Below are positions 7,669-43,829 of a stretch of DNA of 64,000 nucleotides, in pieces (the stretch's first letter is position 1; each line of letters starts with the position of its first letter). The notes under the pieces were generated by a model, which saw nothing but the letters and a program-made list of their open reading frames with translations, was not told where the DNA came from and did no database searches. A program made the translations under genes and the position numbers. Source of the DNA: Patescibacteria group bacterium (GTDB lineage: Bacteria > Patescibacteriota > Minisyncoccia > Phycocordibacterales > UBA9973); NCBI GenBank assembly GCA_030916965.1, contig JAUPVQ010000012.1, forward strand, positions 776 to 64,775, in the 5' to 3' direction.

Positions 7669-7880
7669 AAGTATTTAGAAAATTCTGGATTTGTGGTCAG
7701 AGATAATTTATTCGTCGTCACTCATAAATTTCCCCGACCCTGACTCACCCGTTTTGCTTACTAGCAAAACATGACTCCGTCTCGCACAATGTGGTCACAA
7801 ATATTTTTCTGTTGAAAAATTTCGCGACCCCGGCTCGGCACCGACGTGCCTGCGCCTCGCACAAAATCTCCCAGATTTTG

Positions 7881-7954
7881 TGCGCCCTCATGGATTCGAA
7901 CCATGGACCCCAGAGGTATAAGCTCTGTGCTCTAACCAACTGAGCTAAGGGCGC
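7881..7954 (-). tRNA. tRNA-Ile with anticodon UAU (reads AUA)
   Basis: Hand-folded cloverleaf: acceptor GCGCCCT/AGGGCGC, D-arm GCTC-AGTTGGTTA-GAGC, anticodon stem CAGAG/CTCTG with loop CTTATAC (U33, A37), T-arm CATGG-TTCGAAT-CCATG, discriminator A. No encoded CCA. Confidence 0.8.
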
Positions 7955-8001
7955 ATAAATACTCTCCTATATTAGCAGAATTTGGACAATTAGTAAAACA
8001 C

Positions 8002-8030
8002 AAAAAACTCATAGAATTTCTATGAGTTTT
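8002..8030 (-). terminator. Intrinsic terminator overlapping the ftsH stop codon
   Basis: AACTCATAGAaatttCTATGAGTT stem followed by a T-run on the minus strand. Confidence 0.5.
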
Positions 8031-9930
8031 TTGTTTCTTCTCTTAATTTTGGAGTTATACCAAATGATTTTATTACTTCATTGTATTCATCCTGTTCGAG
8101 AGTTTCTACCTCTATCAACTTCTTGGCAATTGCATCCAGTACTTCCCTTTTCTCAGTCAGTACTGTTCTTGCAACTTCAAATGCGTTGTTCATGATCTTA
8201 CTTACTTCTTCATCTATCAATCCACTAACTCTCTCGCTGTATTCATTGTCATTTACTCCACGACCAAACATTGTCTTGCCACCATCACTCTCGAGTGCTA
8301 TTGGGCCAATGCTTGTACTCATACCCCATCGTGTCACCATCGCTCGGGCAAGATTTGTAGCCACCTGTAGATCGTTCGATGGACCTGTTGTAATATCTCC
8401 AAAAATCATCTCCTCTGCAACATAGCCACCGAGTGACATTGCAATGTCATCTAGGAATTCTTTCTTGCTATGTAATCTTTTATCTTCAAGTGGTAGCTTG
8501 AGTGTGTAACCGCCAGCATTGCCACGCGAAACTATAGAGACTTTGTGTACTGGGTCAGCATACTCAAGACATGATGCCACGAGTGCGTGGCCGCCTTCGT
8601 GATACGCTGTAATTTCTTTTTCTTTTTTTGAAAGTATGTGACTCTTGCGCTCTGGGCCCATCATAACTTTCTCAATAGAACGAACGAGATCAAACTGCGA
8701 AACCATTTTGTGATTTTCACGTGCAGCCAATATTGCAGCTTCGTTCATAAGTGAGGAAAGGTCTGCTCCTGAGAATCCAGGTGTACGCTCCGCAATAACT
8801 TTAATATTTACATCTTTCTCTAATGGCTTCTTTATGCAATGAATTGCTAGTATTGCTTCCCGGTCGGCTCTGTCTGGTAGATCGAGCACTACACGCCTAT
8901 CAAAGCGCCCTGGGCGCAATAATGCAGGGTCTAGGACATCCGAGCGGTTGGTTGCTGCCATTACTATCACTTTCTCATTTGGCTCAAATCCGTCCATTTC
9001 AACAAGTATCTGGTTGAGTGTCTGCTCGCGCTCGTCATTACCACCACCAACTCCAGTGCCACGCACACGGCCCACAGCATCGATCTCGTCGATAAATACA
9101 ATTGCTGGTGATGCCTTCTTGGCCATCTTGAAAAGATCTCGCACGCGACTTGCACCCACACCCACAAACATTTCTACGAATTCACTTCCTGATAGGTGGA
9201 AGAATGGCACACCCGCCTCGCCTGCTACTGCTCGTGCAAGCAATGTCTTACCTGTACCTGGTGCACCTGTGAGTAATACTCCTTTTGGAATCTTGGCACC
9301 AATATCGAGGAACTTTTTAGGATTCTTTAGGAAGTCTACAATTTCTTCAAGTTCTATTTTTGCTTCTTTTGCACCGGCGACATCTTTGAATGTCACACGA
9401 TTGTTTATGTCATTTGGATCAGTGATACGAGCTTTGGATTGGCCGAAGTTGAATGCTTGCATTCCAGCACCCTTTACTTGGCGAGTCAGCATCCAGATGA
9501 AAAATACTACGAGTATTACTGGCAAGGCAAATGGCAAAATATTCAATAGCCAGTAACCAAATCCACTTTCATTTTTGATTTCAATCGGGGTAGTATTTAA
9601 TTGTGCTGGTGTAACTCCGTATCTTACGAGTGTATCAGAGAGTGCACTCTCGGGCTCTTTTTTTGCCTCAGCTTTTGTTCCATCTTTCAAATCAATATTT
9701 ACCTTCTCGCCTTCCACTACAATCTTATCTATTTTATTTTCTGTAATATTCTTTGCTACGTCAGACAATGTAAATTGAGCAATTTTCTCATCTGGCTTTG
9801 AAATAGCAGAATACAAAACTACAATCACCATAAAAATAAGGATTGCAGACATTATTTGAGTACCCGGCCGGCTTGGTTTCTGTGTTGGTTTTTTGTCTTT
9901 ATGTTCTTTCATACGAGTCATTATACACAA
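8020..9930 (-). CDS. ftsH: ATP-dependent zinc metalloprotease FtsH
   Basis: TM anchor, AAA+ Walker [24 protein letters not shown], Walker [15 protein letters not shown], Zn-binding HEGGHALV. The N-terminus may start at an internal Met (MSAIL). Confidence 0.9.
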
Positions 9931-9994: not shown

Positions 9995-10438
9995 ATGACA
10001 GTTTTTACAGACAATCGAAAAGCCTTTTTCAACTACGAAATGCTCGACAAATTCGAAGCAGGTATTGAATTGGCGGGGTACGAGGTCAAATCCATCCGTG
10101 CAGGACAATGCAACTTGAAAGGTGCATATTGTATAGTACGTGGGGGTGAAGTGTATCTTATTGGTATGCATGTGTCTCCTTATCAGATCAAGAACATGCC
10201 AACAACTTACGAGCCAGATCAGAATCGCAAGCTTCTTTTGAATAAAAAAGAAATCGCCATGTTGCTGACAGCCGAGAAGTCTAAAGGATTGACTCTGATA
10301 CCACTATCATTGTATAGTAAGGGTCGCAGAGTAAAGGTTGAAATAGCAATTGCCAAAGGAAAGAAGATCCACGACAAACGTGACTCAATCAAAAAGCGCG
10401 ACACGGATCGCGAAATGCGTAGAACTTTGAAAGAATAA
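9995..10438 (+). CDS. smpB: SsrA-binding protein SmpB
   Basis: 147 aa. NRKAFFNYEMLDKFEAGIELAGYEVKS...GMHVSPYQ...KLLLNKKEI and a basic C-terminal tail. Confidence 0.9.
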   Translation: MTVFTDNRKAFFNYEMLDKFEAGIELAGYEVKSIRAGQCNLKGAYCIVRGGEVYLIGMHVSPYQIKNMPTTYEPDQNRKLLLNKKEIAMLLTAEKSKGLTLIPLSLYSKGRRVKVEIAIAKGKKIHDKRDSIKKRDTDREMRRTLKE

Positions 10439-10443
10439 TAAAT

Positions 10444-10833
10444 GGGGATGACGGGCTTTCGACAGGAAGTGCCATTATGTATATGCGTGTCGAGTACTCA
10501 GGAACCTCGCAAAACTTCTTGAAAAAGACTAAGTGCAAACAAAGTCGCTTCAGTAAAATCTCCTTACGCTTTTGCGTCTGGAAATTTTGCTCTATCCTTC
10601 GCCTAATAGGTCAAGGTAGTGTCCACTCTATCGACATCCGATAAATAGTTTGGGCATAATCAATCGGATTACGAATTCTATACCGCTTGAATAGAATTTC
10701 GACAATCAAAAGCTCGGTATTGTAGTGTTTTGAATGTTCTCTAGCTACATTATTTAAAACCAATGAACACTCTACACACGTAGAATTATATATAATCATT
10801 TTTTGCACGGCGGTTCAACTCCGCCCATCTCCA
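10444..10833 (+). ncRNA. ssrA: tmRNA (ssrA)
   Basis: 5' end GGGGATGACGGGCTTTCGACAGG and 3' end GGCGGTTCAACTCCGCCCATCTCCA form a tRNA-Ala-like acceptor with G3:U70 and a T-arm. An internal tag ORF, gca aac aaa gtc ... tcc ttc gcc taa tag, gives ANKVASVKSPYAFASGNFALSFA with a tandem stop. Lies immediately downstream of smpB. Confidence 0.85.
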
Positions 10834-10842
10834 CAGACAATA

Positions 10843-10886: not shown

Positions 10887-12245
10887 TTATTTCACCAACT
10901 TACTTGCTATACCTGTATATGTTAATGGTGTAAACTTTTTTAATTCAGCTTTTACTTTTTCTGAGACTTTTAGTGTGTCGATAAATGTTGCGAAGTCCGA
11001 CATTCCTACATTCTTGCCACGAGTTAATTCTTTCAAGGCTTCGTACGGCACAGGTAAGCCTTCCCTGCGCATTACTGTCTGGATCGCTTCGGCTACGACT
11101 TCTGGGTGTGATAGCAAATCTTCTTTAATTTTATTTTCATTTACTGCAATTTTACTCAAACCTTTTTCAAGCATTACATATGCCAAATATGAGTGCCCAA
11201 ACGCTGTTCCAAATGCGCGCTCAACAGTCGAATCGGAAAGATCGCGTTGTAGTCGTGATACCGGCAATTTGCGAGCAAAGAATTCAAACAAAGCATTGGC
11301 AATACCTATATTACCCTCACTGTTCTCGAAATCGATTGGGTTAACCTTGTGTGGCATTGTAGATGAGCCTACCTCCCCTTCTTTGGTCTTTTGAGTAACC
11401 CAAGAATCAGAAATGTATCTCCACATATCTTGATTGAAATCAAGCAATATTGTATTGATCCTGCGTACTGTATCGAATACTGCTACATAGCTATCGTGGC
11501 ATTCGATTTGTGTAGTAATCAAATTCGCTTCCAATTTTTGAGTACGTCCTTTGTTGAAACCTTCGATAAAATCCTGACTAAATTTTGGCCAGTTTACCGT
11601 AGGGTACGCAGCCATGTGTGCATTCCAATTGCCTGTCGCACCATTTAATTTGGCTTGGATTTTGATACCTTCGAGACCTTTCAATCTCTTCTCTATTCGT
11701 GCTACAAATACAAACATTTCTTTGCCGAAAGTTGTCGGGCTTGCAGATTGGCCATGAGTCCGCGCAAGCATTGGGAGATTTTTGTATTTAGTTGAAAGTG
11801 CTCGCAACTCTTTTACAATACTTTTAATTTTTGGAATCATTACATGCTCTAGTGAATCCGCAATCATTAATGCATAAGCGATATTGTTTGTATCTTCACT
11901 TGTTGTAGCAAAGTGTACCCACTCTGTCGCATTCTTGAGACTTGTCTTTGCTAGCTTTTCTTTTATGAAATATTCTACTGCTTTTACATCATGATTGGTC
12001 ACACTCTCGATCTTCTTTATAGCTTCGTATGAAGCATCATCAAATTTCTCATAAAGCGATTTAAGAGTTTTGATTTCATTTACTGTAAATTTCCGCAGGC
12101 CTGTCTTGCCCGATGCGGATATTGCGAGCAAATATTCGCACTCCATCATCGTGCGGTATTTCATCAAGGCCTGCTCAGAGAAATAAGGCGCCAAATCACG
12201 AGTTCGTTCATAATATCGCCCATCGAGTGGATTTATAGCTTGCAT
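10887..12245 (-). CDS. purB: Adenylosuccinate lyase
   Basis: 452 aa, fumarate-lyase fold. Signature region GSSTMPHKVNP-like (TMPHKVNPIDFEN). Confidence 0.9.
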   Translation of the reverse strand: MQAINPLDGRYYERTRDLAPYFSEQALMKYRTMMECEYLLAISASGKTGLRKFTVNEIKTLKSLYEKFDDASYEAIKKIESVTNHDVKAVEYFIKEKLAKTSLKNATEWVHFATTSEDTNNIAYALMIADSLEHVMIPKIKSIVKELRALSTKYKNLPMLARTHGQSASPTTFGKEMFVFVARIEKRLKGLEGIKIQAKLNGATGNWNAHMAAYPTVNWPKFSQDFIEGFNKGRTQKLEANLITTQIECHDSYVAVFDTVRRINTILLDFNQDMWRYISDSWVTQKTKEGEVGSSTMPHKVNPIDFENSEGNIGIANALFEFFARKLPVSRLQRDLSDSTVERAFGTAFGHSYLAYVMLEKGLSKIAVNENKIKEDLLSHPEVVAEAIQTVMRREGLPVPYEALKELTRGKNVGMSDFATFIDTLKVSEKVKAELKKFTPLTYTGIASKLVK

Positions 12246-13204
12246 TATATTTGTTTCAAATTATTAGTAATTCTTTCCATTATAGGAGTATTGAAATCAT
12301 GGTTGAAGGGCTCGCCTGTGATTGTCTCATAGATTTCGATATATCTGCGTGAGAGCTCGGCTACCATATCAGCTGGAGCATCAGGCAGGACAGTATCGTT
12401 GTATGGATCACAATTATCTTTGAACCAAAGGCGGAGGAATTCTTTGTCGAAATATTCTGGTTCTAATCCGGCATCTATACGCTCTTGGTAAGTCGCAGCT
12501 TTCCAGTAGCGAGATGAATCTGGTGTATGCACTTCATCGATTAGTGTTAATTTTCCATTCTCATCCATACCAAATTCATATTTAGTATCAACAAGGATCA
12601 AACCTTTTGAAAGTGCGATCTCCTGCCCTCTTTTGAAAACGGCTTTTGCTACACGTTCCAATTCATCTGTCATTTCTTTTGTTAGAATTCCTTCACTTAC
12701 AATCTCGGCTGGGGTAATTGGCCTGTCATGTTCATCGGACTTTGTTGTTGGGGTAAAAACTGGCTCATCCATTTTTTGATTCTTTTTCAAACCTTCTGGT
12801 AGTACAAAGTTTCCAAAATCTCTTTGGCCTTCCTTGTACAATGTCCACATAGATGTATTTGTAGAACCAGTAATATATCCTCGCACAATACACTCAATGG
12901 GGATCACTGTGCACTTCTTGGCAACAAGAACATTTGGGTCTGGAATACTTACCACGTGGTTCTGGATTATATCTTTTGTATTTTCAAACCAAAAAGCACT
13001 AATCTGGTTGAGCACAGCACCCTTGAATGGAATATGCGCAATAATGCGATCAAAAGATGAATGCCTGTCTGTAGAAACCAATGTAATTTTATCCGGAGCA
13101 ATATAAATATCGCGAACCTTACCAATCTTGCGTTCCCCAATACCTTGCAAATTTGTCTCTTTAATTACATCATTGATGTGCTCTTTTATTGTATCTATAT
13201 TCAT
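12245..13204 (-). CDS. purC: SAICAR synthetase (long form)
   Basis: 319 aa. GKVRDIY...LVSTDRHSSFD motif. Confidence 0.88.
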   Translation of the reverse strand: MNIDTIKEHINDVIKETNLQGIGERKIGKVRDIYIAPDKITLVSTDRHSSFDRIIAHIPFKGAVLNQISAFWFENTKDIIQNHVVSIPDPNVLVAKKCTVIPIECIVRGYITGSTNTSMWTLYKEGQRDFGNFVLPEGLKKNQKMDEPVFTPTTKSDEHDRPITPAEIVSEGILTKEMTDELERVAKAVFKRGQEIALSKGLILVDTKYEFGMDENGKLTLIDEVHTPDSSRYWKAATYQERIDAGLEPEYFDKEFLRLWFKDNCDPYNDTVLPDAPADMVAELSRRYIEIYETITGEPFNHDFNTPIMERITNNLKQI

Positions 13205-13205
13205 A

Positions 13206-14246
13206 TTATTTCAATACTACTTTTTTATTACCACTAATAATTTGACCAATTTCGTACATTATAAAATCAGGATATTTATTCAAAATTTCAGCAATTTTTT
13301 CTTTCTCTGTTTGTGGCACAATCAGGATCAAACCAATTCCCATATTAAATGCTCGGTACATTTGATCCTCGGGAACATTTGCTACCTTTTGCATATAAGA
13401 AAATATTGGGAGAACTGGCCAAGAATTCAGATTAATTTGTGCATCTAGATTTGCAGGTAACACACGAGGAATATTCTCGAGGAATCCTCCGCCTGTAATA
13501 TGCGCAATTCCACGAACATCAATCCCTTTATCGAGCATCTCGAGTACTGGTACAGAATAGTTTACGTGCACTTTCAATAATGCATCACCTACGCTCTCCC
13601 CGATTTCATCTACAACAGTATTTACATCTAGACCAGCCATATCAAAAAGTATTTTGCGAGCAAGCGAATAGCCATTGGTATGTAGCCCACTTGATGGTAG
13701 TCCTAGCAGAATATCTCCATCAATAATTTTCTCACCTGTAATTATTTTGTCCTTCTCTACCACTCCTGTAATCGAGCCTGCAATATCGTGCTCTCCTGTC
13801 ATATAAGTTCCTGGCATTTCAGCAGTCTCGCCACCAATTAGTGACACGCCATTTTCGCGGCAGGCCTTGGCCATACCACCCACCATCGCAGCCATTACAT
13901 TTGGATCCAATTTGTCGTGCGCTACATAGTCGAGGAATGTAAGAGATCGTGCACCCATAGCCAATAGGTCATCACAGCAATGATTCACAATATCTTCACC
14001 GACTGTATCGTATTTGTTCATCATCCGTGCAACAGAAAGCTTGGTCCCCACGCCATCTATAGATTGTACCAAAACGGGATTTTTGTAATTCTTTATTATT
14101 TCGCTCAAGTCATATAGCCCTCCGAAGCTACCGATACCAGTAAGCACAGCACTCGTATGAGTACTCGCAACATCAGCCTTGATACGGCGTACCGTCTCGT
14201 TCCCTGCTTCGATATCTACTCCTGCTTGTGTGTATAGATCAGCCAT
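13206..14246 (-). CDS. purM: AIR synthetase (phosphoribosylformylglycinamidine cyclo-ligase)
   Basis: 346 aa. N-terminus MADLYTQAGVDIEAGN. PurM N and C domains. Confidence 0.9.
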   Translation of the reverse strand: MADLYTQAGVDIEAGNETVRRIKADVASTHTSAVLTGIGSFGGLYDLSEIIKNYKNPVLVQSIDGVGTKLSVARMMNKYDTVGEDIVNHCCDDLLAMGARSLTFLDYVAHDKLDPNVMAAMVGGMAKACRENGVSLIGGETAEMPGTYMTGEHDIAGSITGVVEKDKIITGEKIIDGDILLGLPSSGLHTNGYSLARKILFDMAGLDVNTVVDEIGESVGDALLKVHVNYSVPVLEMLDKGIDVRGIAHITGGGFLENIPRVLPANLDAQINLNSWPVLPIFSYMQKVANVPEDQMYRAFNMGIGLILIVPQTEKEKIAEILNKYPDFIMYEIGQIISGNKKVVLK

Positions 14247-14767
14247 TATTTTTGTAAATAATTTTTATAACCAATTTCTGACATCTTTTTTGCTTTTGTT
14301 TTTACACCTGATTCTAGTTTCTTTTTGAATTCATTCAACTTTTTTTGTAGAGTCTTGTCACTAGTTGCTAAAATTTGGACTGCCAATATTCCAGCATTGT
14401 GTGCAGAATTGATACCAACAGTTGCAACAGGAATACCAGGTGGCATCTGTACTGTAGAGAGGAGTGAGTCTAGTCCATCGAGAGTCTTGGCCTTGATAGG
14501 CACACCTATCACAGGAAGTGTAGTCAACGATGCTGCTACCCCTGCTAGATGCGCTGCCCCACCAGCTGCGGCAATTATCACCTTCAACCCACGAGTAATT
14601 GCACTTGTTGCATAAGCATGAGCAATGTTTGGAGAACGGTGCGCAGATGCTACAGTAATCTCGTATGGCACACCAAAGTCTTCTAATAGTGTACAAGCCT
14701 CACTCATAACACCCAAATCAGAATCAGAACCCATAATAATACCTACTATTGATTTTGCCTTTTTCAT
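14246..14767 (-). CDS. purE: N5-CAIR mutase / AIR carboxylase catalytic subunit
   Basis: 173 aa. IVGIIMGSDSDLGVM...ITVASAHRSP...AAGGAAHLAGV. Confidence 0.9.
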   Translation of the reverse strand: MKKAKSIVGIIMGSDSDLGVMSEACTLLEDFGVPYEITVASAHRSPNIAHAYATSAITRGLKVIIAAAGGAAHLAGVAASLTTLPVIGVPIKAKTLDGLDSLLSTVQMPPGIPVATVGINSAHNAGILAVQILATSDKTLQKKLNEFKKKLESGVKTKAKKMSEIGYKNYLQK

Positions 14768-14842
14768 ATACCAAATATAGCATATTTCCCTATCCTCACA
14801 AATATATAATTAAAAACGAGGCCCCTATAAAGTAAGCCTCAT

Positions 14843-15679
14843 TTAATAAAATAGTTTTCCATCTTTAAGAGCGTTAGTAAGTTGCCCATAATTTGAAAAT
14901 ATTCTTTGGTTGTTATTTAGAAAGATATTCGTATCTTGGCTAAATAGCCAAAATGGAATTCCAGCATTTTCTGCCATTTTCCCATCAAGTTCAATATCAT
15001 CACCTATAAGTATGACATTCTGCCGCGCGTAATCCATATCGATTTGGGGATTACATTGTAGCCATTGATCAATAGCTAAAGCAATCAAATAAACACTAGG
15101 TTTATTCTTACTTTTCCAATCCAAATCAAATTGTCCAAAACTGTCATCAGGCGTGATGCAAAGTAATGGTTTTTTTAGGTTGTGAAAATTAAAAACTTCA
15201 TAAATAAATTTTTCATAACCTGATGATACAATACCGAGATCTGTATTATAGAGCTCGAGGGTATTCCGAAATTCACGGAAACCTGTATATATTTCAGGCC
15301 AAACATTTCCATTTAAACAAATTGTTCCTATGCTATGTTTTAAATAATAAATATTTGTTTTTATAAATGATGAATAAATTTCAGGAGTAGAGTCAAGATT
15401 TGAATCCAAACTTAAATCTATATCATAATTTTCACAATAGACTTTAAAGTTTGGTAACAATTCTTTTATGGATGCTAGATGCATTACCACTTGTATTAAG
15501 GATCTACCATTATTACCGCCTTCATTTAGAAATCTTGCTAAGCCTTCATATCCAAACATTAAATTAATAGTGTTGTGATATGCTTGCTCATACAAATTAT
15601 CTTCATCGGTTTTGGCAATAGTTTTAGAAAAACTAGCCAATACTAACCTTTTTGGGTATTCTATTATCGAGTTTTTCAT
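14843..15679 (-). CDS. Hypothetical protein embedded in the pur operon, with a HAD-like C-terminal motif
   Basis: 278 aa. C-terminal VILIGDDIELDGKMAENAGIPF matches HAD motif IV (GDxxxD...A..AG). No canonical DxDGT motif I was seen. Confidence 0.45.
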   Translation of the reverse strand: MKNSIIEYPKRLVLASFSKTIAKTDEDNLYEQAYHNTINLMFGYEGLARFLNEGGNNGRSLIQVVMHLASIKELLPNFKVYCENYDIDLSLDSNLDSTPEIYSSFIKTNIYYLKHSIGTICLNGNVWPEIYTGFREFRNTLELYNTDLGIVSSGYEKFIYEVFNFHNLKKPLLCITPDDSFGQFDLDWKSKNKPSVYLIALAIDQWLQCNPQIDMDYARQNVILIGDDIELDGKMAENAGIPFWLFSQDTNIFLNNNQRIFSNYGQLTNALKDGKLFY

Positions 15680-15732
15680 GACTTTACCTTTTATTAAAGT
15701 CTACATTAAAACCCAGATTTGTCAAAAAATAA

Positions 15733-17028
15733 TTACAATTTTGTATGTAGAGCTCTCTTGCCTATATCATCCCTATAATAGATGCCTTGGTAGTAGATTT
15801 TTTGTATTGCTTTGTAAGCCTTGTCTAGAGCCTCTTGTAGTGTCACACCTGTAGCCGACACCCCAAGCACTCGCCCTCCATTTGTAACAACATTGCCGTC
15901 AGCGATTGCAGTACCTGCATGAAATATTACAATATCGGGGTCATTCTGTGCTTCATTGATACCTGTAATTACTTTCCCTTTTTCATAAGCATTTGGATAA
16001 CCTCCGGATGCCAAAACAATATTACAAGCAAATAAACTTTTCCATTTAATTTCGAATTTGAATAATTCCTTTTCTATACAGGCATCAAATAACTCAAAAA
16101 TATCAACATCGAGTAACCGCATATATGTTTGAACTTCTGGATCTCCGAAGCGAGAGTTGAACTCTATTATCTTTGGTCCTTCTGTTGTGATTATTAATCC
16201 CGGGTATAGTATCCCCTCAAATGGTAGACCGTCATGCTCCATATTTACCAATGTGGGAAGAATAATGTTGTTTTTGATTCCTGTCATCAAATCTTCTGTA
16301 ACAAATGGAACAGGAGCAATCGTCCCCATACCCCCAGTGTTTAATCCTGTATCTCCTATGCCAATCTTTTTGTGATCCTGAGAAGATGGAAATACTTTTG
16401 AAGAAACTCCATCTGAGATAGCGTGAGTGGAAATCTCTGGCCCTACAAGAAATTCTTCAATAACAATTTGTTTTCCACCATCACCAAAAATCTTTTTTAT
16501 TAAAATATTTTCTACGGCAATCTTTGCCTCTTCTCTTGTAAGACAAATAAGCACACCCTTTCCAAGAGCAAGTCCAGATGCCTTGACGACTACTGGTGTT
16601 GTATGAGTATCTATATAATTAAGTGCGTCATTGTATTGCTCATCTGTAAAAGTTTGGAATTTAGATGTTGGTAAATTGTGACGATGCATGAAATCTTTTG
16701 CAAATGCCTTGGACCATTCGAGCTTGCTTGCTTCTTTTGTTGGACCCCAAATACGCAGATTATTTTTACGAAATAGATCTACAATTCCAAGTGCTAATGG
16801 ATCGTCTGGTAGTGCTAGGGTCATGTAGATATTTTCTTTTTTAGCAAATTCCAACAAGGCTTCTATATCAATAGCTCTTATATCTATATTTGTACCCAAT
16901 TCTGCTGTACCAGCATTCCCAGGTGCAAAAAAAAGTATTGGCCTATGTTGTGATTGATCCAATTTCCATCCTATAGCATGTTCCCTGCCCCCACTACCAA
17001 TTATTAATACTTTTTTATTCTGCAACAT
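15733..17028 (-). CDS. purD: GAR synthetase (phosphoribosylamine-glycine ligase)
   Basis: 431 aa. KVLIIGSGGREHAIGWKL N-terminus, ATP-grasp core. Confidence 0.9.
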   Translation of the reverse strand: MLQNKKVLIIGSGGREHAIGWKLDQSQHRPILFFAPGNAGTAELGTNIDIRAIDIEALLEFAKKENIYMTLALPDDPLALGIVDLFRKNNLRIWGPTKEASKLEWSKAFAKDFMHRHNLPTSKFQTFTDEQYNDALNYIDTHTTPVVVKASGLALGKGVLICLTREEAKIAVENILIKKIFGDGGKQIVIEEFLVGPEISTHAISDGVSSKVFPSSQDHKKIGIGDTGLNTGGMGTIAPVPFVTEDLMTGIKNNIILPTLVNMEHDGLPFEGILYPGLIITTEGPKIIEFNSRFGDPEVQTYMRLLDVDIFELFDACIEKELFKFEIKWKSLFACNIVLASGGYPNAYEKGKVITGINEAQNDPDIVIFHAGTAIADGNVVTNGGRVLGVSATGVTLQEALDKAYKAIQKIYYQGIYYRDDIGKRALHTKL

Positions 17029-17080
17029 AATTTAAATTTACCATATTTCTACCCGTTTGGGTATTTTAGTATTGTACTCT

Positions 17081-17701
17081 TTAACTGTGAGTGATCTTTC
17101 CCAAAACTTCTACATAAAGCTCATTTTCTTTCTTTTTCAATCTAGCATATAGAGATTCTACTGTGTCGTTGTTCTCTACTTTTTCAAATGTTCTACCGAG
17201 TACAGGCCCGAAGTCAAAATCAAGTGTCAGAAAATGGACTGATGACCCAGCAAAAGTACTTTTGTTATTCAAAAAATTAGCAACTGCTTTATCGGCAAGC
17301 ATTCCTTTGTTCCACAAGGCGAGGGTTCCATCTGGATTTTGAACAGTTCCCTCAACTGTATCTGGGATCAAACCAGGGTGCAAATTTAAAATCTTGTTTG
17401 GGTAAGCTGTGATAACTTCATCAAGTATTATCTTTTTCCAACCTGCTAAACATATAAAATCGGGATTCAATTTCTGTAATAGCGCCAACAAATCTTCTTT
17501 GATCGGGCAAATTTCTATGGGGATATTATGTGCTTTCGCATGTTCGAGCCCCATTGCATCATCTCTATCTGAAATAACAGCACAAATACTTGCATTGATA
17601 GAATCTCTTTCAACGCCATCAATAATTGCCTTTAAATTACTCCCAGTTCCAGTATTGGAGATAAGAACAACTATTTGTAATTTACTCTTTTGGGACATCA
17701 T
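17081..17701 (-). CDS. purN: GAR formyltransferase-like
   Basis: 206 aa. N-terminal KLQIVVLISNTGTGSNLKAI and the formyl-transferase HPGL/ICLAGW region. Confidence 0.8.
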   Translation of the reverse strand: MMSQKSKLQIVVLISNTGTGSNLKAIIDGVERDSINASICAVISDRDDAMGLEHAKAHNIPIEICPIKEDLLALLQKLNPDFICLAGWKKIILDEVITAYPNKILNLHPGLIPDTVEGTVQNPDGTLALWNKGMLADKAVANFLNNKSTFAGSSVHFLTLDFDFGPVLGRTFEKVENNDTVESLYARLKKKENELYVEVLGKITHS

Positions 17702-19079
17702 AGCTTACCTCACTTTTACGCTCTAATATATCTATTGGATATTCACCTGTGAAAAATGATGTACAGAGATTCTCTTTTGGAAGACCTATAGATTTAATAA
17801 GCCCGTCAAGTGACAAGAAGTGCAGACTTGTAGCTCCTAGGAATTCACGGATTTCCTCTACTGTTTTGTGTGATGCAATAAGGTCACCCTGCTTCGGTGT
17901 ATCAATACCATAGAAATCCGGAAATCGAACCGGTGGAGATGAAATCAGGAAGTGTACTTCCTTGGCACCAGATTTAAATAAATTCTCTACTAATTTACGG
18001 CTAGTTGTACCACGCACTATTGAATCATCTATTACAATTACTCTTTTGCCTGAAAGAACCTCTGGCATTGGGATTAATTTGAGCGCTACAGAGTGCTCGC
18101 GGGATTCTTGGTCAGGCTCTATAAATGTACGATGTACGTAGCGATTCTTGATCAAGCCTAATTCAAGAGGAATTCCAGATTTCTGAGAGAAACCAATCGC
18201 CACAGGCATAGCAGTATCTGGAACAGGCACTACTATATCTGCTTTTAGTATAAACTCTTCTGCGAGCGTCATACCAGATTGCTTACGAACTTCGTATACA
18301 GATTTGCCACAGAGTACACTATCCGGTCTTGCAAAATAAACAAATTCAAAAATATCATGATGTGGAGTCGGCTCTGCGAGCTTCACACTCTTTAACCCAT
18401 CTTTATTTATGATGAGCATTTCTCCAGGCTCTACTTCACGCAAGAATTCTGCCCCTATAGTTTTGAGTGCACAAGTTTCCGACGCTACCACAAAACCATT
18501 TTTTATTTTACCTAAAGCAAGTGGTCGCATACCATAGGAATCTCGGATTACTATAAGTGTATCTTTTGTCATCATAGTGATAGAAAATGATCCCGTCATT
18601 AGTGGAAAAACATTTTTAACACTTTCTTCTATATTCAGACCCTCTGCCAGATACACTTTGATTGCATCTGCAATCAATTCAGAATCAGAACGGTTATCTT
18701 TGAGAGCATTTTTTGAAGAGAGAAATTCTTGTAGAGCTTTGACGCTTGGCAAATTACCATTGTGAGCAAGAGCAAAATCATTCTCATTATTTACTACTGG
18801 CTGTGCATGATCAAGCGCACCACCTCCAGATGTGGAATATCGATTATGGCCAATAGCAATATGGCCTACCAATGGCTTGATTGTATCTTCGGTATATACA
18901 CCCGATACAAGCCCTGCCCCTTTGTGAGTATATAAATTAGCTCCATCACTTGTCGTGATTCCACTTGCCTCTTGTCCGCGGTGCTGAAGAGCAAACAATC
19001 CAAAAAAAGCATGCCGAGCGACATTAATGCCCTCTGCATAAATCCCAAAAACAGCACATTTTTCATTTAAATTTTCCAT
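17682..19079 (-). CDS. purF: Amidophosphoribosyltransferase
   Basis: 465 aa. Short propeptide then the Ntn Cys (MENLNEKCAVFGIY), PRTase motif VIVIDDSIVRGTTS. Confidence 0.9.
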   Translation of the reverse strand: MENLNEKCAVFGIYAEGINVARHAFFGLFALQHRGQEASGITTSDGANLYTHKGAGLVSGVYTEDTIKPLVGHIAIGHNRYSTSGGGALDHAQPVVNNENDFALAHNGNLPSVKALQEFLSSKNALKDNRSDSELIADAIKVYLAEGLNIEESVKNVFPLMTGSFSITMMTKDTLIVIRDSYGMRPLALGKIKNGFVVASETCALKTIGAEFLREVEPGEMLIINKDGLKSVKLAEPTPHHDIFEFVYFARPDSVLCGKSVYEVRKQSGMTLAEEFILKADIVVPVPDTAMPVAIGFSQKSGIPLELGLIKNRYVHRTFIEPDQESREHSVALKLIPMPEVLSGKRVIVIDDSIVRGTTSRKLVENLFKSGAKEVHFLISSPPVRFPDFYGIDTPKQGDLIASHKTVEEIREFLGATSLHFLSLDGLIKSIGLPKENLCTSFFTGEYPIDILERKSEVSYDVPKE

Positions 19080-19098
19080 TTAGGTCTCTAGTATAACA

Positions 19099-19878
19099 TT
19101 ATTTCTTAAAATAATTTACTGCATTTTTGAAGATTATTAAGCCGGGGCCTTCAGTTGGAAGTTTTGATTTCTTTCTCTTTGCAATTTCTTTTTTCAACTG
19201 CGCGTCGGGTCTTTGCTGGTAGAACATTCCTCTTTCAGGATGTGGCATCATACCGAGGATTTTTCCATTTTCAGAAAGCACACCTCCTACATCGTGCATA
19301 GCACCATTTGGATTGGCTGGAAGATTTTGGAATTCACAGATCTCACCTTTTGTATATTGAAATGCGATTTGACCATTCTTCATCATTTTTTTGTATTCAT
19401 CTTCATTAATTATGTATCGGCCTTCGCCATGAGCAATAGGCAAAGAGATTTCTTTCACCCCTTTTAACCATGGGCTACTGCCAACACACTTCATATCTAC
19501 CCAGCGATCAATATACATACCGCTTGCATTATGAGCGAGTGCACCTGGTACTAATTCCAAATTTGTAATAATCTGGAATCCATTACAAATACCGATCACC
19601 AATGTATCGCGTGCGATAAATTCATCAAGCTCTTTTTGTAAATGATTATGGAATTTGTTGGCATAAGCCTTACCAGAGCCTGTGTCATCTCCATAAGAGA
19701 ATCCTCCAGGGAAAGCAAGGATATCATAATTTGAAAGCAATGCAGGATTAGCAATCAAATCATTGATATGAACAATGTCAGCCTGTCCCCCCGCCCATTC
19801 AAAAGCATACTTGGTCTCCTCTTCGCAATTGAGCCCATACCCCGACATCACTATAATTTTTGGCTGTTTATTTTTCAT
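19099..19878 (-). CDS. purQ: FGAM synthase glutaminase subunit
   Basis: 259 aa. KIIVMSGYGLNCEEE...LAFPGGFSYGDD...GICNGFQII...HPE. Confidence 0.88.
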   Translation of the reverse strand: MKNKQPKIIVMSGYGLNCEEETKYAFEWAGGQADIVHINDLIANPALLSNYDILAFPGGFSYGDDTGSGKAYANKFHNHLQKELDEFIARDTLVIGICNGFQIITNLELVPGALAHNASGMYIDRWVDMKCVGSSPWLKGVKEISLPIAHGEGRYIINEDEYKKMMKNGQIAFQYTKGEICEFQNLPANPNGAMHDVGGVLSENGKILGMMPHPERGMFYQQRPDAQLKKEIAKRKKSKLPTEGPGLIIFKNAVNYFKK

Positions 19879-19879
19879 A

Positions 19880-22843
19880 TTATTTAAAGCTATTTGAAAA
19901 TGAATTATGGAATTTGGAAATTGTATCGACTTTTGTATCTACAATTTTTTGAGTGCCATTTTTTATTAAAAATTCTTTTCCAGATTTAACTTGTCCAATT
20001 TTTGTATATGGAATATTCTTTATCAAACTTTCAAATGCTTTCACATTACCCTTTGCCACACTTACTACAATTCTACCCTGACTTTCAGAGAACAATTTCG
20101 CATCTATACTACTTGCAGTTCCAGCAAGCTTCTTAAGATCAACATTGATACCAAGCATTCCACCAACACTTGCTTTTGCCAGTGCTTGTGCAAGACCTCC
20201 AGAATTTACAGATATTGCACTCGCAACTATACCTTTGGCAATTACTTTTTCGAGAGCTTTGTAAATTTTTGTATTTTTCTTTGTATCTACTTTTGGTACA
20301 CTATTCCCAATTGCAATATTCTTGCCAATTTGTTTGTAGTATTCACTTGCACCAAGTTCATCGTGTGTTTCCCCCAATATATATATAGTATCACCTGCAA
20401 TTTTGAATTCTGGGGTTACAGCCTTGTTGAAATCTTTCATCACACCAATTGCTGAAATTAGTAGTGTAGGTGGGATAGAAATCGCTACAGAGTTACCATC
20501 CTTATCGTAACCTTTGAAATCATTGAACATACTATCCTTACCAGAAATAAATGGAGTACCATAATCAACCGCTGTGTCATAACAAGCACGGATCGCGTCT
20601 ACCAATTCCCCTAAACGAACCTCATCATAAGATGAGCACCAGCAAGTATTGTCGAGGATTGCCAAGTGGTCAAGTGTACCACCAGCACAGATTGCATTTC
20701 GCACTGCTGTATCAATAGCACAAGATGTCATGTCGTATGTATTGATATCACCATAAGATGGATACACACTTGATGTCACAACAACGGCACGATCGGATTT
20801 AAATACTGGTTTAATAACTTGGGCATCTGTGTTTATTAATCCGGCCCCTGATAAAGGTTTAACAACCGAAGAGGATTGCACTTCGTGATCGTATTGCTCA
20901 CTTATCCATCTATTACTTCCCAAGTTTGCAGAACCAACGAGAGTTAAAAATTCTTTTGTTCGATTGTAGCCATTGGGTAACTTTGGTTCATTAAAAATCT
21001 TCACATCTCTTTTTGAATGAAGTTGTCTTGCAGGGAGACCGTTATGCAAGAATTCCATCGGCATATCCATTATCACTTTTCCGTTATGTCGAACTACGCA
21101 ATTTTTATTTTTAGAGAATTCTCCAATCACAGAGGCCTGCACTCCGCGACTTTCCATTAATTTTTGGAATTCATCCCATTTATTTTTTGGCACGGCAAGT
21201 GTCATTCGCTCTTGTGATTCAGAGATCCAAATCTGCCACGGAGAAAGTCCGGGATATTTAAGCGGAACATTCTCTATATCTACAACTGCTCCTCCACACT
21301 CTTTGGCCATTTCTGCCACAGAGCACGATATTCCTCCTGCACCATTGTCTGTAATACTATTATACAAATTTCTGTCACGCGCTTCTTTTACAATTGCATC
21401 ACTTAATTTCTTTTGAGTTATTGGATCTCCAATCTGTACAGCTGTTGCTGGGCTTGAAGAATCAAGTACTACAGATGAAAATGTCGCTCCGTGCACACCA
21501 TCAAGCCCTACCTTGCCACCAACTACTACGATATAGTCACCAGCACGAGCCCTCTTCTCTGTAGCATTCTTGCCATTTACAATACGTGGGGAAAGTCCAA
21601 TAGTCCCCGCAAAGACTAGAGGTTTGCCACGGTAGCGATCATCAAATTTTGTAAATCCATTAATTGTTGGAATTCCGGAGCAGTTTCCTCCAGCGTTTAT
21701 ACCTTTTATCACCCCGTCAACAATACGAGCAGGTGGGAGCATTTTTTGTTTTAATTTTTTATCTTTGTATAGTTCCCTTTTATCATCTGGATATCCAAAA
21801 CAAAATCCATACACATTGGCAATCGGTTTAGCTCCCATACCAAACCCGATGGTATCGCGGTTCACTCCCACAATCCCAGTGATTGCTCCACCAAATGGAT
21901 CAAGTGCTGATGGACTGTTGTGCGTCTCCACTTTGTGACTTACCATATATGTATCATCAAAAACAATTCCTCCGGCATTGTCGGAGAAAACTGAAAGACA
22001 GAAATCATTTTTACCTTTAGCTTTCCTTATATCGTTTGTAGCCTTCTTTATATAACTTTTATACAAGCCATCTTTGATATCATCAATAGAGTTTGCAAAA
22101 ATTGTATGCTTGCAGTGCTCACTCCATGTTTGTGCAAGCGATTCCAATTCTATATCTGTCGGATTTCTTTTTATATTTTTAAAAAAGTTTTGAATTACTT
22201 TCATACTCTCGAGGTCCAGTGCAAGTGGTCCCCGACGATCACCGTCTGGATCTAGTATTCCCTCTTTCCCTGTCTTTATAAGCTCATCTGTGTTTGCATT
22301 TGATAGTGGTACTACTATGCAATCTTTCTTTTTTGGCAAGACTACAACAGGCACATATAGTGGCAACCCTTTATTTTTTAATTCATTTGAGACTGGGAAA
22401 ATTGTAGCTCTTTCTATCAATGGATTGTGTAATGAGAATGCAATTTTGTTTACATCCTCTTTTGAGATTGTACCTCCAATTAGAAAAACTTTGGAAGTAT
22501 ATACAGCTTCAACATCAGCAAAAGGCCTTTTTAATAAATCACTCACACTCTCCATTACTGTATGTGCCACATTGTCTGTCACTCCAGGAGCAAAACCAAT
22601 TTCAAGTATATATGAAAAATTTGCCAGATTTGGCAATGAGTTTATGGAGTAGTTTTCAAGTTTTTTATTTATGAGAGATTGACCTGTCAAATTTAATTGC
22701 TCTGGTGTTAAGCTAGCATTAACGAGGTATGAGTCAATTACAGAAACATTTGCCACCTTGCCATATAGCCCTAAATTGTTAAAAGGCAATATCTTGCCTT
22801 TTCCATTTTGTTCATTAGGAACTACATAAATCCTTGAAATCAT
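19880..22843 (-). CDS. purL: FGAM synthase subunit PurL. At 987 aa it is larger than small PurL, with an N-terminal PurS-like extension.
   Basis: AIR-synthase-related N and C domains repeated (DxGGG-type motifs NGAGGIS / SGKDS), translationally coupled to purQ. Confidence 0.88.
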   Translation of the reverse strand: MISRIYVVPNEQNGKGKILPFNNLGLYGKVANVSVIDSYLVNASLTPEQLNLTGQSLINKKLENYSINSLPNLANFSYILEIGFAPGVTDNVAHTVMESVSDLLKRPFADVEAVYTSKVFLIGGTISKEDVNKIAFSLHNPLIERATIFPVSNELKNKGLPLYVPVVVLPKKKDCIVVPLSNANTDELIKTGKEGILDPDGDRRGPLALDLESMKVIQNFFKNIKRNPTDIELESLAQTWSEHCKHTIFANSIDDIKDGLYKSYIKKATNDIRKAKGKNDFCLSVFSDNAGGIVFDDTYMVSHKVETHNSPSALDPFGGAITGIVGVNRDTIGFGMGAKPIANVYGFCFGYPDDKRELYKDKKLKQKMLPPARIVDGVIKGINAGGNCSGIPTINGFTKFDDRYRGKPLVFAGTIGLSPRIVNGKNATEKRARAGDYIVVVGGKVGLDGVHGATFSSVVLDSSSPATAVQIGDPITQKKLSDAIVKEARDRNLYNSITDNGAGGISCSVAEMAKECGGAVVDIENVPLKYPGLSPWQIWISESQERMTLAVPKNKWDEFQKLMESRGVQASVIGEFSKNKNCVVRHNGKVIMDMPMEFLHNGLPARQLHSKRDVKIFNEPKLPNGYNRTKEFLTLVGSANLGSNRWISEQYDHEVQSSSVVKPLSGAGLINTDAQVIKPVFKSDRAVVVTSSVYPSYGDINTYDMTSCAIDTAVRNAICAGGTLDHLAILDNTCWCSSYDEVRLGELVDAIRACYDTAVDYGTPFISGKDSMFNDFKGYDKDGNSVAISIPPTLLISAIGVMKDFNKAVTPEFKIAGDTIYILGETHDELGASEYYKQIGKNIAIGNSVPKVDTKKNTKIYKALEKVIAKGIVASAISVNSGGLAQALAKASVGGMLGINVDLKKLAGTASSIDAKLFSESQGRIVVSVAKGNVKAFESLIKNIPYTKIGQVKSGKEFLIKNGTQKIVDTKVDTISKFHNSFSNSFK

Positions 22844-23304
22844 ACACCTATATTAGACTATTTTTGTCCTTATTACAAATATGTTATTATAGGCAAATGG
22901 CACAGCCAACACTACAAGTTACTGGATACCGTGGAATATGGGGAGACACTTTAACAAGTGAAATTGCAAAGAAATATGCAGGTGCATATGCTCAATTTGT
23001 AAAGAGTGAATTTCCCGACAAAGAAAATCCTACTATATTAATAGGCCGAGATGGCCGTGAAAGTGGTAAAGAGATTGCACTTGCTATTATTCCCATAATG
23101 CAATCATTTGGTATGAATGTAATAGATGGCGACATACTCCCTACTCCAACTTTGATGTTTGGAGTTAATAAATACAATTATGATGGCGCAGTAATAATTA
23201 CAGCGAGTCACAACCCTATAGAATACAATGGAATCAAGTTTGTTGTAAAAGGCGGTAGACTAACAAACGAGTCGGAAGTAGAAAAAATTAAAACATTTTT
23301 ATAA
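22834..23304 (+). CDS. Phosphohexomutase (PGM/PMM/GlmM family) domain I fragment. Probable start at MAQPTLQV, about 22897.
   Basis: Active-site loop TASHNP. Ends with a TAA 2 nt before the next ORF, which carries domains II-IV. Confidence 0.7.
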   Translation: MKSYTYIRLFLSLLQICYYRQMAQPTLQVTGYRGIWGDTLTSEIAKKYAGAYAQFVKSEFPDKENPTILIGRDGRESGKEIALAIIPIMQSFGMNVIDGDILPTPTLMFGVNKYNYDGAVIITASHNPIEYNGIKFVVKGGRLTNESEVEKIKTFL

Positions 23305-23305
23305 T

Positions 23306-24208
23306 ATGCCAAATTTTCCAAAAGAACATGCAGATCACATACTAGCCTATATCAACGTCGAGGCAATTCGCGCACGTAAATTCAAAGTGGCAGTAGACAT
23401 GATCAACGCATCCGCATGTGTTGTTGATCCGTATCTATTTGAACAACTTGGTGTGGAATTAGTTCCAATAAACAATATTCCAAATGGCAAATTCGCCCAC
23501 AAACCCGAGCCCACAGTAGAGAATCTTGTTGGGACTGGTCTTATTGTAAAAGAATCTGCTGTTGATATTGGTTTTGTCCATGACCCAGATGCAGACAGAA
23601 TGGTAATCATAAACAATGAGGGAACAGTTCTTTCCGAAGATTACACTCTAGCTTTCGGTGTAGAAAATATTTTGTCTAAAAATCCTGGAAGGAATGTTGT
23701 AATAAATATGTCTACATCACAAATGATCGATGACATAGCAGAGAGGCACGGTAGTAAATGTATCCGTACAAAGGTTGGAGAATCAAATGTGATGGGAGGC
23801 ATGTTGGAATATGATGCAATTGTCGGAGGAGAAGGCACAAGTGGTGTTATATTCCCTACTCTCAATAACTGTCGTGATAGTTTTGTCAGCTTAAGTCTTG
23901 CTCTAGAATTACTCGCAGAACGCAATCAAACCATAAATGAATGCGTAAGTTCGTTGCCAAAATATTTTATGAAAAGAGACAAGTGGCCAGTAGGTGGCGA
24001 GCTGTCAGGAATGTATTCAAAATTAAAAGAGCATTTTAAGGATGGTGTAATGAATGAGCTTGATGGTCTGCGCATAGTTCTCCCAGATAAATCTTGGATT
24101 CACTTGCGACCCTCAAACACAGAGCCAATAATCAGACTCTTTGGCGAAGCCAAGACCCAAGAAAGAGTCGAAGAACTCTTTGCCGAAGCTCAAAAAGTAA
24201 TTTCTTAA
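23306..24208 (+). CDS. Phosphohexomutase domains II-IV fragment (continuation of the preceding ORF in another frame)
   Basis: DPDADR metal-binding loop and GGEGTSG sugar-binding loop. Shifted frame relative to 22834..23304. Removing one A from the A6 run at 23282-23287 fuses the two ORFs. Confidence 0.7.
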   Translation: MPNFPKEHADHILAYINVEAIRARKFKVAVDMINASACVVDPYLFEQLGVELVPINNIPNGKFAHKPEPTVENLVGTGLIVKESAVDIGFVHDPDADRMVIINNEGTVLSEDYTLAFGVENILSKNPGRNVVINMSTSQMIDDIAERHGSKCIRTKVGESNVMGGMLEYDAIVGGEGTSGVIFPTLNNCRDSFVSLSLALELLAERNQTINECVSSLPKYFMKRDKWPVGGELSGMYSKLKEHFKDGVMNELDGLRIVLPDKSWIHLRPSNTEPIIRLFGEAKTQERVEELFAEAQKVIS

Positions 24209-43190: not shown

Positions 43191-43826
43191 ATGAATATAA
43201 TCAAATCCAAAGAATTGGCCAAAAAACTCTTGGAAATTAAGGCCGTAAAATTAAATGTTGAAAATCCGTTTACTTGGACATCTGGTACGATATCCCCTAT
43301 TTATTGTGATAATCGTATGGTACTTTCTTATCCAGAAATTCGAACTTTTGTAAAAAATGCTCTGGCTGAAATTATTCAAGACAAATTTCCAAACACAGAA
43401 GTCGTAGCCGGAGTAGCAACTGCAGGAATTGCACATGCAGCACTAGTATCGGATGTATTAAATTTACCGAATTGTTATGTACGTCCCGAGCCAAAAAAAC
43501 ATGGGATGAAAAATCAGATCGAAGGCAATCTACCAAAAGGTAGCAAGGTTGTACTAGTAGAAGATTTGATTGCAACTGGTAAAAGTAGCTTCCAATCAAT
43601 CCAGGCCGTTCGCGAAGCAGGCTCCGAGGTGATTGGGCTTGTGGCATTATTTACGTATGGATTTCCAGATGCAAAAGAATCATTTGATAAAGAAAATATT
43701 CCAACATATACTATTTCAAATTTCGAAACTTTGTGCACAGTTGCAGTAGAAGAAAATTTGCTCGATAAAAATAATCTAGAGAAAGTTATAGAATTCGCCA
43801 AAAACCGCGACGGGTGGAGAAAATAA
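43191..43826 (+). CDS. pyrE: Orotate phosphoribosyltransferase
   Basis: 211 aa. PRPP-binding loop VVLVEDLIATGKS. Confidence 0.85.
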   Translation: MNIIKSKELAKKLLEIKAVKLNVENPFTWTSGTISPIYCDNRMVLSYPEIRTFVKNALAEIIQDKFPNTEVVAGVATAGIAHAALVSDVLNLPNCYVRPEPKKHGMKNQIEGNLPKGSKVVLVEDLIATGKSSFQSIQAVREAGSEVIGLVALFTYGFPDAKESFDKENIPTYTISNFETLCTVAVEENLLDKNNLEKVIEFAKNRDGWRK

Positions 43827-43829
43827 ATA

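Follow-up and report, generated by a model that had tools for sequence, protein, structure and literature searches.

A tRNA-Ile gene with an encoded UAU anticodon beside ftsH in Patescibacteria, a probable TilS-independent decoder of AUA

A classic weak point of the genetic code is the codon AUA, which has to be read as isoleucine without AUG being misread. Bacteria are said to achieve this almost universally by means of lysidine, and TilS, the lysidine synthase that acts on tRNA-Ile2(CAU), is an essential enzyme. TilS has been detected in about 98% of bacteria (PMC6063277, PMC12514573) and was considered "evolutionarily stable across bacteria" (PMC6063277). TAT anticodons were recorded for 19 species in tRNADB-CE (PMC4013482), and a review of 2021 regarded the UAU anticodon as lost in prokaryotes (PMC8007984). 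Here we analyze a tRNA-Ile(UAU) gene located next to ftsH in a 64,000-nucleotide stretch of DNA from a Patescibacteria group bacterium (assembly GCA_030916965.1, contig JAUPVQ010000012.1, positions 776 to 64,775), hereafter the window. The available evidence suggests, with a probability of roughly 0.78, that this gene encodes a functional AUA-decoding tRNA-Ile of the TilS-independent type, which replaces the combination of tRNA-Ile2(CAU) and TilS in its lineage. TilS-independent decoding of AUA by tRNA-Ile(UAU) is known from other organisms; what seems new is its lineage-wide scale, which is apparently unreported. Among open-access papers and bioRxiv preprints, no paper was found that relates tilS, lysidine or UAU to the Candidate Phyla Radiation (CPR)/Patescibacteria, the surveys and the review cited above make no reference to the CPR in this connection, and an earlier report elsewhere is possible.

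One of the described systems is that of Mycoplasma mobile (Taniguchi 2013, PMC3575796). This bacterium, which has a reduced genome with AUA as a frequent codon and lacks tilS, reads AUA by means of a tRNA-Ile2 with an encoded UAU anticodon. U34 of tRNA-Ile(UAU) is unmodified in M. mobile (PMC3575796) as well as in a Bacillus subtilis suppressor (PMC3919564), and on the cognate ribosome these tRNAs bound AUA well and AUG poorly (PMC3575796, PMC3919564). The isoleucyl-tRNA synthetases (IleRS) expected to accept U34 are either IleRS1 enzymes with Arg or Lys at the position of E. coli Trp905 or type-2 enzymes, IleRS2. M. mobile uses the first solution, with Arg865 replacing Trp in the zinc-binding domain of its bacterial IleRS1, whereas Bifidobacterium adolescentis and Neorickettsia sennetsu, which combine a UAU tRNA with the absence of TilS, have an IleRS of the eukaryotic type (discussion of PMC3575796). 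Lactobacillus casei and L. plantarum carry a genomic tRNA-Ile(TAT) and keep tilS and tRNA-Ile2(CAU). Outside bacteria, the UAU anticodon together with IleRS2-type charging is found in the eukaryotic cytoplasm, in Korarchaeum and in Nanoarchaeum equitans, an ultra-small episymbiont without a C34-modifying enzyme (PMC3919564, PMC3895270). In eukaryotes the anticodon is converted to psi-A-psi (PMC8007984) and the gene often contains an intron; there was no evidence of either in the locus described here. Haloarchaeal tRNA-Ile U34 mutants gain a modification and bind AUG (PMC3895270), and thus an unprotected U34 can be risky.

A preliminary description of the window, prepared from the sequence alone, had placed a tRNA-Ile with a UAU anticodon at 7881-7954 and had left its strand unstated. 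ARAGORN and Rfam both confirmed the gene; these coordinates are exact, and the strand is minus:

7881..7954, minus strand: tRNA-Ile(UAU) gene, 74 nt (ARAGORN; Rfam RF00005; covariation over 48 distinct homologues)
7916..7922, minus strand: anticodon loop C32-U33-U34-A35-U36-A37-C38 (sequence and cmscan alignment)

Of the two RNA genes that ARAGORN reported in the window, one is a tmRNA (10444-10834) and the other a minus-strand tRNA-Ile (7880-7954) with anticodon (tat), the fold of which yielded UAU and no different anticodon. The match to RF00005 (7954-7881, minus) scored 71.4 bits, the gathering score being 29 (E = 1.3e-13 for the 64-kb window), and was full-length over model positions 1-71 with a posterior probability of 1.00. 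The anticodon occupies 7918-7920, where the plus strand reads "ata". The acceptor end consists of G1-C72 and the discriminator A73; CCA is not encoded in the gene, the 3' flank being C-A-A. The cloverleaf, the 7-nt anticodon loop, the T-loop GTTCGAAT, the GG of the D-loop and a score above the gathering threshold confirm that the locus is a genuine canonical tRNA, far beyond chance.

Conservation of the gene was examined in the ftsH neighbourhood, which in the window comprises the following elements:

8000..8034, minus strand: terminator-like 16-bp hairpin followed by a T-run (terminator scan, consensus match only; inverted repeat I1)
8020..9930, minus strand: ftsH, ATP-dependent zinc metalloprotease (NCBIfam TIGR01241, 782 bits)
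9995..10438, plus strand: smpB, divergent from ftsH (NCBIfam NF003843, 186 bits)
10444..10836, plus strand: tmRNA gene, ssrA (ARAGORN; Rfam RF00023, 131.7 bits)

The window FtsH is at most 80% identical to that of any of 185,579 species representatives, and the species with the 80 best FtsH matches were taken as relatives; of these, only the ftsH neighbourhoods were sampled (1.24 Mb). All 80 are Patescibacteria metagenome-assembled genomes, labelled as Nomurabacteria, Paceibacteria/Paceibacterota, Parcubacteria, Taylorbacteria, Adlerbacteria, Zambryskibacteria or Minisyncoccia and in some cases, evidently wrongly, as "Saccharibacteria". The window organism is an ultra-small bacterium of the Patescibacteria, class Paceibacteria, with a Nomurabacteria-like chromosome. 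In the window the tRNA gene lies 65 nt downstream of ftsH, and the hairpin, which overlaps the 3' end of ftsH, stands between them as a predicted terminator. A tRNA-Ile(UAU) gene was present downstream of ftsH in 72 of the 80 relatives, at a median distance of 190 bp and on either strand (54 on the strand of ftsH, 18 on the opposite one), and of the eight loci lacking it, six lie on contigs that break off less than 0.9 kb beyond ftsH. The preliminary description called the anticodon rare; this is true of the literature, whereas for the lineage studied here such a gene is the rule. The tmRNA gene was also found near ftsH in most of the 80 relatives, so that smpB/tmRNA, ftsH and tRNA-Ile form a conserved neighbourhood. 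The exact SmpB protein was found only on Logan contigs (up to 3 kb long), adjoining ftsH; reads of the organism are contained in SRR22000184 and SRR24011139-48.

The 73 tRNA-Ile(tat) genes of the window and its relatives, which reduce to 60 distinct core sequences, all keep the UAU anticodon. The D-stem, U8, A14, G18-G19, the T-loop, A73 and the C32-U33-U34-A35-U36-A37 segment are invariant. At position 38 there is a C in 58 of these cores (loop CTTATAC) and a U in the remaining two (CTTATAT). Over 48 distinct homologues, cloverleaf pairing was maintained in 99.5% of 1008 cells, 16 of the 21 stem pairs showed compensatory changes, and the covariation score was 0.759, compared with 0.174 for shuffled and at most 0.157 for slid-partner controls. 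This pattern of sequence conservation is that of a core gene under strong purifying selection. As a separate observation, 26 of the 48 distinct sequences begin with C1-G72 (CCGCCC...GGGCGG-A73), an unusual pair in a bacterial elongator tRNA; the window copy has G1-C72.

An accessory or decaying gene devoid of a core role, be it a pseudogene or the cargo of a phage or integrative element, was also considered, given that tRNA genes are common as cargo and as integration targets. In addition, weak matches to phage tRNAs (about 80% identity) were obtained, and a repeat-bearing structured segment lies directly 3' of the gene:

7669..7880, minus strand: structured, GC-enriched 3' trailer of the tRNA (fold, direct repeats, recurrence in relatives)

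This explanation is very improbable: a pseudogene or a recent acquisition is ruled out by the conserved chromosomal position, covariation and anticodon loop, no integrase or phage genes occur nearby in the window, and the phage matches are to tRNA-Arg/Lys at the level of generic tRNA similarity. The trailer itself (212 nt) folds with -78.9 kcal/mol (z = -6.7), contains two tandem related units (direct repeats D1/D2) and gave no Rfam match at E <= 10. Within the trailer lies a 37-nt AT-rich hairpin (GGTC...GACC) that was seen again, with up to 100% identity over 35 nt, in the loci of approximately 12 related species, where it follows a tRNA-Ile or tmRNA gene at a distance of 40-300 nt. Judging by its sequence and recurrence, it may be a terminator or processing module of stable RNAs or a small mobile repeat.

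A different kind of doubt concerns the amino acid carried. The best E. coli match of the window tRNA is a tRNA-Arg (argU-like, 79.5% identity) with an identical acceptor stem, and the resemblance of its body to tRNA-Arg(UCU) would be compatible with charging by another synthetase or with a reassigned AUA. Alignment with E. coli tRNA-Arg, ileX (CAU) and ileT (GAU) showed that the likeness to tRNA-Arg is confined to the GC-rich acceptor stem. A20, C35 and G73 of E. coli tRNA-Arg, which we take to be the arginine identity determinants, are all missing, and the window tRNA has U20, A35 and A73 as do both E. coli tRNA-Ile species; the arginine identity suggested by the best match was discarded on these three positions. 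Further coincidences with ileX and ileT include U36, A37 and U12-A23.

The codon itself points in the same direction. Of the cells that the 80 relatives contribute at the 18 ATA codons of the window ftsH, 55% are Ile, 27% Val or Leu and fewer than 2% Met; Arg appears at only one column, which is variable, and no pattern of replacement of Ile by another residue was apparent. Six of the 18 columns are near-invariant for Ile, with ATT, ATC and ATA interchanging among species. Judged by these columns, AUA behaves as an isoleucine codon in the lineage, and a tRNA charged with another amino acid is scarcely credible; on codon columns and identity positions, isoleucine identity appears to hold for the window tRNA. 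AUA is also a major Ile codon, making up 32% of the Ile codons in 16 long open reading frames (ORFs) of the window (overall range 26-36%). Its frequency per 1000 codons is 20.4 even within the ribosomal-protein/EF-Tu block, and 31.3 elsewhere. These frequencies fall in the "high" category of PMC12514573.

Replacement of the canonical system implies absence of its enzyme. No ORF of the 64-kb window matched PF01171, the PP-loop domain of TilS. A tblastn search of the window and the 80 loci with E. coli TilS retrieved nothing below E = 3; it was judged too insensitive, and a hidden Markov model (HMM) built from 13 metagenomic TilS proteins and E. coli TilS was used instead. The positive-control set consisted of 120 metagenome loci bearing a CAU version of this tRNA body (loop CTCATAC), in 27 of which the HMM recovered TilS. 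When the window and the 80 loci were translated in six frames (9,588 ORFs), it gave a single weak match (21.6 bits), which corresponds to the GMP synthase GuaA.

In the control loci, ftsH was located within a few kb in 13 of the 120 and, in the nine tested, the ORF between the CAU tRNA and ftsH was in every case TilS (PF01171, E = 1e-47 to 1e-59), in some also with TilS or TilS_C domains and in one locus accompanied by an hpt-like gene. TilS adjoins this CAU tRNA in 27 of the 120 loci, and in 23 of the 26 with a parsable tRNA the two genes share a strand, the tRNA directly preceding tilS. This suggests that a candidate tRNA-Ile2 often has the gene of its modifying enzyme as a neighbour; the CAU tRNA of the tilS-ftsH module is probably tRNA-Ile2. 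As an observation in its own right, the co-directional module tRNA(CAU, loop CUCAUAC)-tilS-(hpt)-ftsH recurs in metagenome contigs of 35-75% G+C (loci L098, L114, L116, L123, L127, L131, L135, L164, L170, L177, L187, L194, L199 and others).

Both systems have the task of reading AUA as Ile without reading AUG, use similar tRNA bodies (U20, A73, D-arm) and are linked to ftsH, the canonical one in other bacteria and the UAU tRNA here. They differ in that the canonical tRNA has C34, is served by an enzyme and is encoded with tilS upstream of ftsH, whereas the tRNA described here has U34, apparently no such enzyme and a position downstream of ftsH; the upstream side, which holds tilS in other bacteria, is occupied by smpB in the window. 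A same-site replacement of tRNA-Ile2(CAU)-tilS by the UAU tRNA was considered and is not supported, because the two flank ftsH on different sides. The only CAU tRNA in the related loci (L042) was also considered as tRNA-Ile2, but its sequence is unrelated to the UAU tRNA and it is not evidently Ile2.

Genome-scale data from the same class add to this picture. The Candidatus Paceibacterales bin PMX_810_sub (866 features; Table S2 of PMC10936435, mBio 2024) has no K04075 entry and no PF01171 match among its features. A gene labelled "tRNA(Ile)-lysidine synthase" in this bin was rejected as such, being a PP-loop N-acetyl sugar amidotransferase. Among its tRNAs are a single tRNA-Ile(gat) and, as the only tRNAs with CAU, two tRNA-Met(cat). 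The gene table of Minisyncoccus archaeiphilus contains no "lysidine" entry among the approximately 40% of genes listed (an estimate), a coverage that gives this negative little weight.

A broader view was obtained from tRNA counts for 95 complete Patescibacteria genomes, determined with tRNAscan-SE and ARAGORN (supplementary Table 2 of PMC13011429); the main text of that paper never mentions UAU, TAT, lysidine or TilS. As ARAGORN labels every CAU tRNA as "Met", the Ile count represents the non-CAU Ile genes. Two or more such genes were counted in 45 genomes, of which 40 have at most two CAU tRNAs (14 of the 15 in Paceibacteria); every one of the 50 genomes with a single such gene has at least three. 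The association between an extra Ile gene and a missing third CAU tRNA has a Fisher p of ~1e-21, uncorrected for phylogeny. The two-Ile type comprises 12/12 Microgenomatia, 7/7 Dojkabacteria and 4/4 ABY1 genomes and occurs also in WWE3, UBA1384 and Doudnabacteria; within Paceibacteria 15 genomes are of this type and five are canonical. The canonical type prevails in Saccharimonadia (34/36), JAEDAM01 (7/7) and Kazan-3B-28. Extending the proposal to about half of the Patescibacteria (most Paceibacteria, Microgenomatia, Dojkabacteria, ABY1, WWE3 and others), with the UAU tRNA as the prevailing AUA decoder in place of tRNA-Ile2(CAU) and TilS and with the C32/C38 signature and a type-2 IleRS, is a proposition for which the chances are evenly divided.

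These data also bear on whether the tRNA could be a redundant decoder that supplements, and does not replace, tRNA-Ile2(CAU) and TilS. Bacteria with both systems were listed by Taniguchi 2013 (PMC3575796), and L. casei and L. plantarum are of this kind; in Patescibacteria, five of the 45 two-Ile genomes have three CAU tRNAs, including the Paceibacteria genome GCA_022530585.1. The two-Ile genomes of Patescibacteria, unlike the lactobacilli, usually lack the third CAU tRNA, TilS is missing from the window and from the 80 ftsH loci even though tilS adjoins ftsH in other bacteria, and PF01171 is absent from PMX_810_sub. Mere redundancy is therefore considered unlikely.

Several observations weigh against the replacement of the canonical system in the lineage, and are gathered here. 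The tilS searches covered the 64-kb window and the 80 ftsH neighbourhoods, and the gene could sit in the unsampled ~90% of the genome. The five genomes with two Ile genes and three CAU tRNAs indicate that coexistence does occur in the phylum, and the trait does not extend to the whole class, five of the 20 complete Paceibacteria genomes being of the canonical type. As the table gives counts and not anticodons, identification of the second Ile gene as UAU outside the 80 loci is indirect. PMX_810_sub shows no tRNA-Ile(tat) and is incomplete, as evidenced by the lack of ftsH. The IleRS type discussed below was read in another order of the class. Finally, C38 is a clear departure from the A38 of both E. 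coli tRNA-Ile species, which presumably belongs to the identity set of E. coli IleRS. On balance, loss of the tRNA-Ile2(CAU) and TilS pair is still the most likely course of events in this lineage. The preliminary description had concluded that a UAU tRNA implies a different strategy for decoding AUA; this is borne out in large part, as the evidence does point to lysidine-free decoding, which is probable for this particular genome.

Functioning of such a tRNA depends on a synthetase able to accept U34. ileS is not encoded in the 64-kb window, and tblastn with E. coli IleRS gave no match in the window or the 80 loci. For M. archaeiphilus and PMX_810_sub the Pfam matches of IleRS include PF19302 (DUF5915), the zinc-finger domain PF06827 is not listed, and the best eggNOG match for the Paceibacterales enzyme is the IleRS of the spirochaete Treponema. 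In our reading PF19302 probably represents the C-terminus of a type-2 (eukaryote/archaeal-like) IleRS, an assignment backed by the Treponema match. The PMX_810_sub gene (PMX_810_sub_00382, 3504 nt) encodes an extra histidine-phosphatase domain (PF00300) and received the Prokka name "phosphoglycerate mutase GpmB"; in the gene table of M. archaeiphilus a gpmB-family gene directly precedes ileS. GpmB-IleRS may be a lineage-specific IleRS fusion.

Compared with M. mobile, the window lineage shares a reduced genome, an encoded UAU anticodon expected to read a frequent AUA codon, the absence of tilS (here in the searched DNA) and an A37 available for N6-threonylcarbamoyladenosine (t6A), TsaD being present in Paceibacteria. 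It differs in the PF19302 IleRS2 of the Paceibacterales genomes, as opposed to IleRS1, and in that the trait extends to at least 72 species and not to one species of a tilS-containing genus. These features suggest that the closest subtype is that of Bifidobacterium and Neorickettsia (UAU tRNA and IleRS2; the IleRS here being taken from class-level data) and not that of M. mobile (IleRS1, Arg865). The Bifidobacterium and Neorickettsia cases are phylogenetically unrelated, and the window tRNA is distinguished from them by its synteny with ftsH and by C38.

The proposed mechanism can be outlined as follows. The encoded U34 would pair directly with the A of AUA, and because of this direct reading tRNA-Ile2(CAU) and TilS would not be needed. 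Charging would be performed by the eukaryote/archaeal-type IleRS2, as judged from the two Paceibacterales genomes and the tilS-less Bifidobacterium and Neorickettsia, through recognition of A35, U36, (t6)A37 and A73. Misreading of AUG would be avoided insofar as an unmodified U34, or one without an xm5 modification, pairs poorly with G; by analogy with M. mobile and the B. subtilis suppressor, the loop with C32 and a pyrimidine at position 38 and the lineage's own ribosome would probably restrict pairing with G further. By the same analogy, an unmodified or at least non-xm5 U34 is the most likely basis of fidelity.

As a variant compatible with this mechanism, the tRNA could have the same role with a U34 modified, for instance to pseudouridine, so as to restrict pairing to A. 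The eukaryotic tRNA-Ile(psi-A-psi) and the modification acquired by the haloarchaeal U34 mutants are precedents (PMC8007984, PMC3895270), a possible modification was raised for Mycoplasma suis (Taniguchi 2013, PMC3575796), and the near-invariant C32/C38 loop could serve as a recognition element for an enzyme. U34 is plain in both chemically analysed bacterial cases; MnmE, MnmG and TadA were absent among the 866 features of the incomplete PMX_810_sub bin, in which TsaD (t6A37) and MnmA were present; and TruB is the sole pseudouridine synthase encoded in the window. A modified U34 is consequently regarded as possible, at rather low odds. The special modification of U34 that had been put forward in the preliminary description finds no support in the two unmodified bacterial precedents (PMC3575796, PMC3919564) or in the gene content of PMX_810_sub, without MnmE and MnmG.

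Another tRNA gene was observed in the sampled neighbourhoods. Ten relatives (L011 16268-16355, minus; L013 15460-15545, minus; L015, L021, L024, L029, L034, L035, L055 and L012) encode a tRNA-Ser with an ACU anticodon (A34), divergent from tRNA-Ser(GCU) and located 60-500 bp away from it. Its features are G73, the loop UUACUAA and the long arm of class II, and its stems show compensatory changes from one species to another. Anticodons with A34 are seldom met in bacteria and count as very rare; this gene is not present in the window, and, as mentioned, PMX_810_sub lacks TadA.

The window has a G+C content of approximately 38%. In addition to the ftsH neighbourhood it encodes a histidine kinase, a response regulator, recG, an extracytoplasmic function (ECF) sigma factor, a ZIP transporter, truB, infC, secY, a ribosomal-protein block and tuf. 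Other features are:

10887-22843, minus strand: near-complete de novo purine biosynthesis operon
22834-23304 and 23306-24208, plus strand: phosphoglucomutase/phosphomannomutase split in two ORFs in different frames
30407-33130, minus strand: 907-aa VirD4/HerA-like ATPase (type IV secretion coupling protein)
53814-55280, minus strand: cohesin-domain protein
59556-63938, minus strand: 1460-aa protein with a G8 domain

The purine operon contains purB, purC, purM, purE, a 278-aa ORF, purD, purN, purF, purQ and a 987-aa purL, and pyrF with a phosphoribosyltransferase gene is found at 43191-44558. This operon is worthy of attention, since the usual description of CPR bacteria is that they cannot make nucleotides. 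In the split phosphoglucomutase/phosphomannomutase, domain I is encoded by the first ORF and domains II-IV by the second; this could reflect a frameshift, a sequencing error or a truly split gene. An episymbiont could plausibly use the VirD4/HerA-like ATPase and the cohesin- and G8-domain proteins at its cell surface or in interaction with its host.

The mislabelled amidotransferase of the Paceibacterales bin calls for caution with "lysidine synthase" annotations in these organisms, in which, if the proposal is true, TilS would be unusable as a universal bacterial marker or as a drug target. The 60 natural variants with a near-invariant C32-C38 loop constitute a comparative set to address how U34 avoids G, and the cultured M. 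archaeiphilus, which belongs to the same class, could help to test this property. Should the proposal hold, the exceptions to TilS would amount to thousands of species and not to a handful, and the CPR would be the first large bacterial radiation without lysidine, contradicting the view of TilS as a stable trait across bacteria (PMC6063277).

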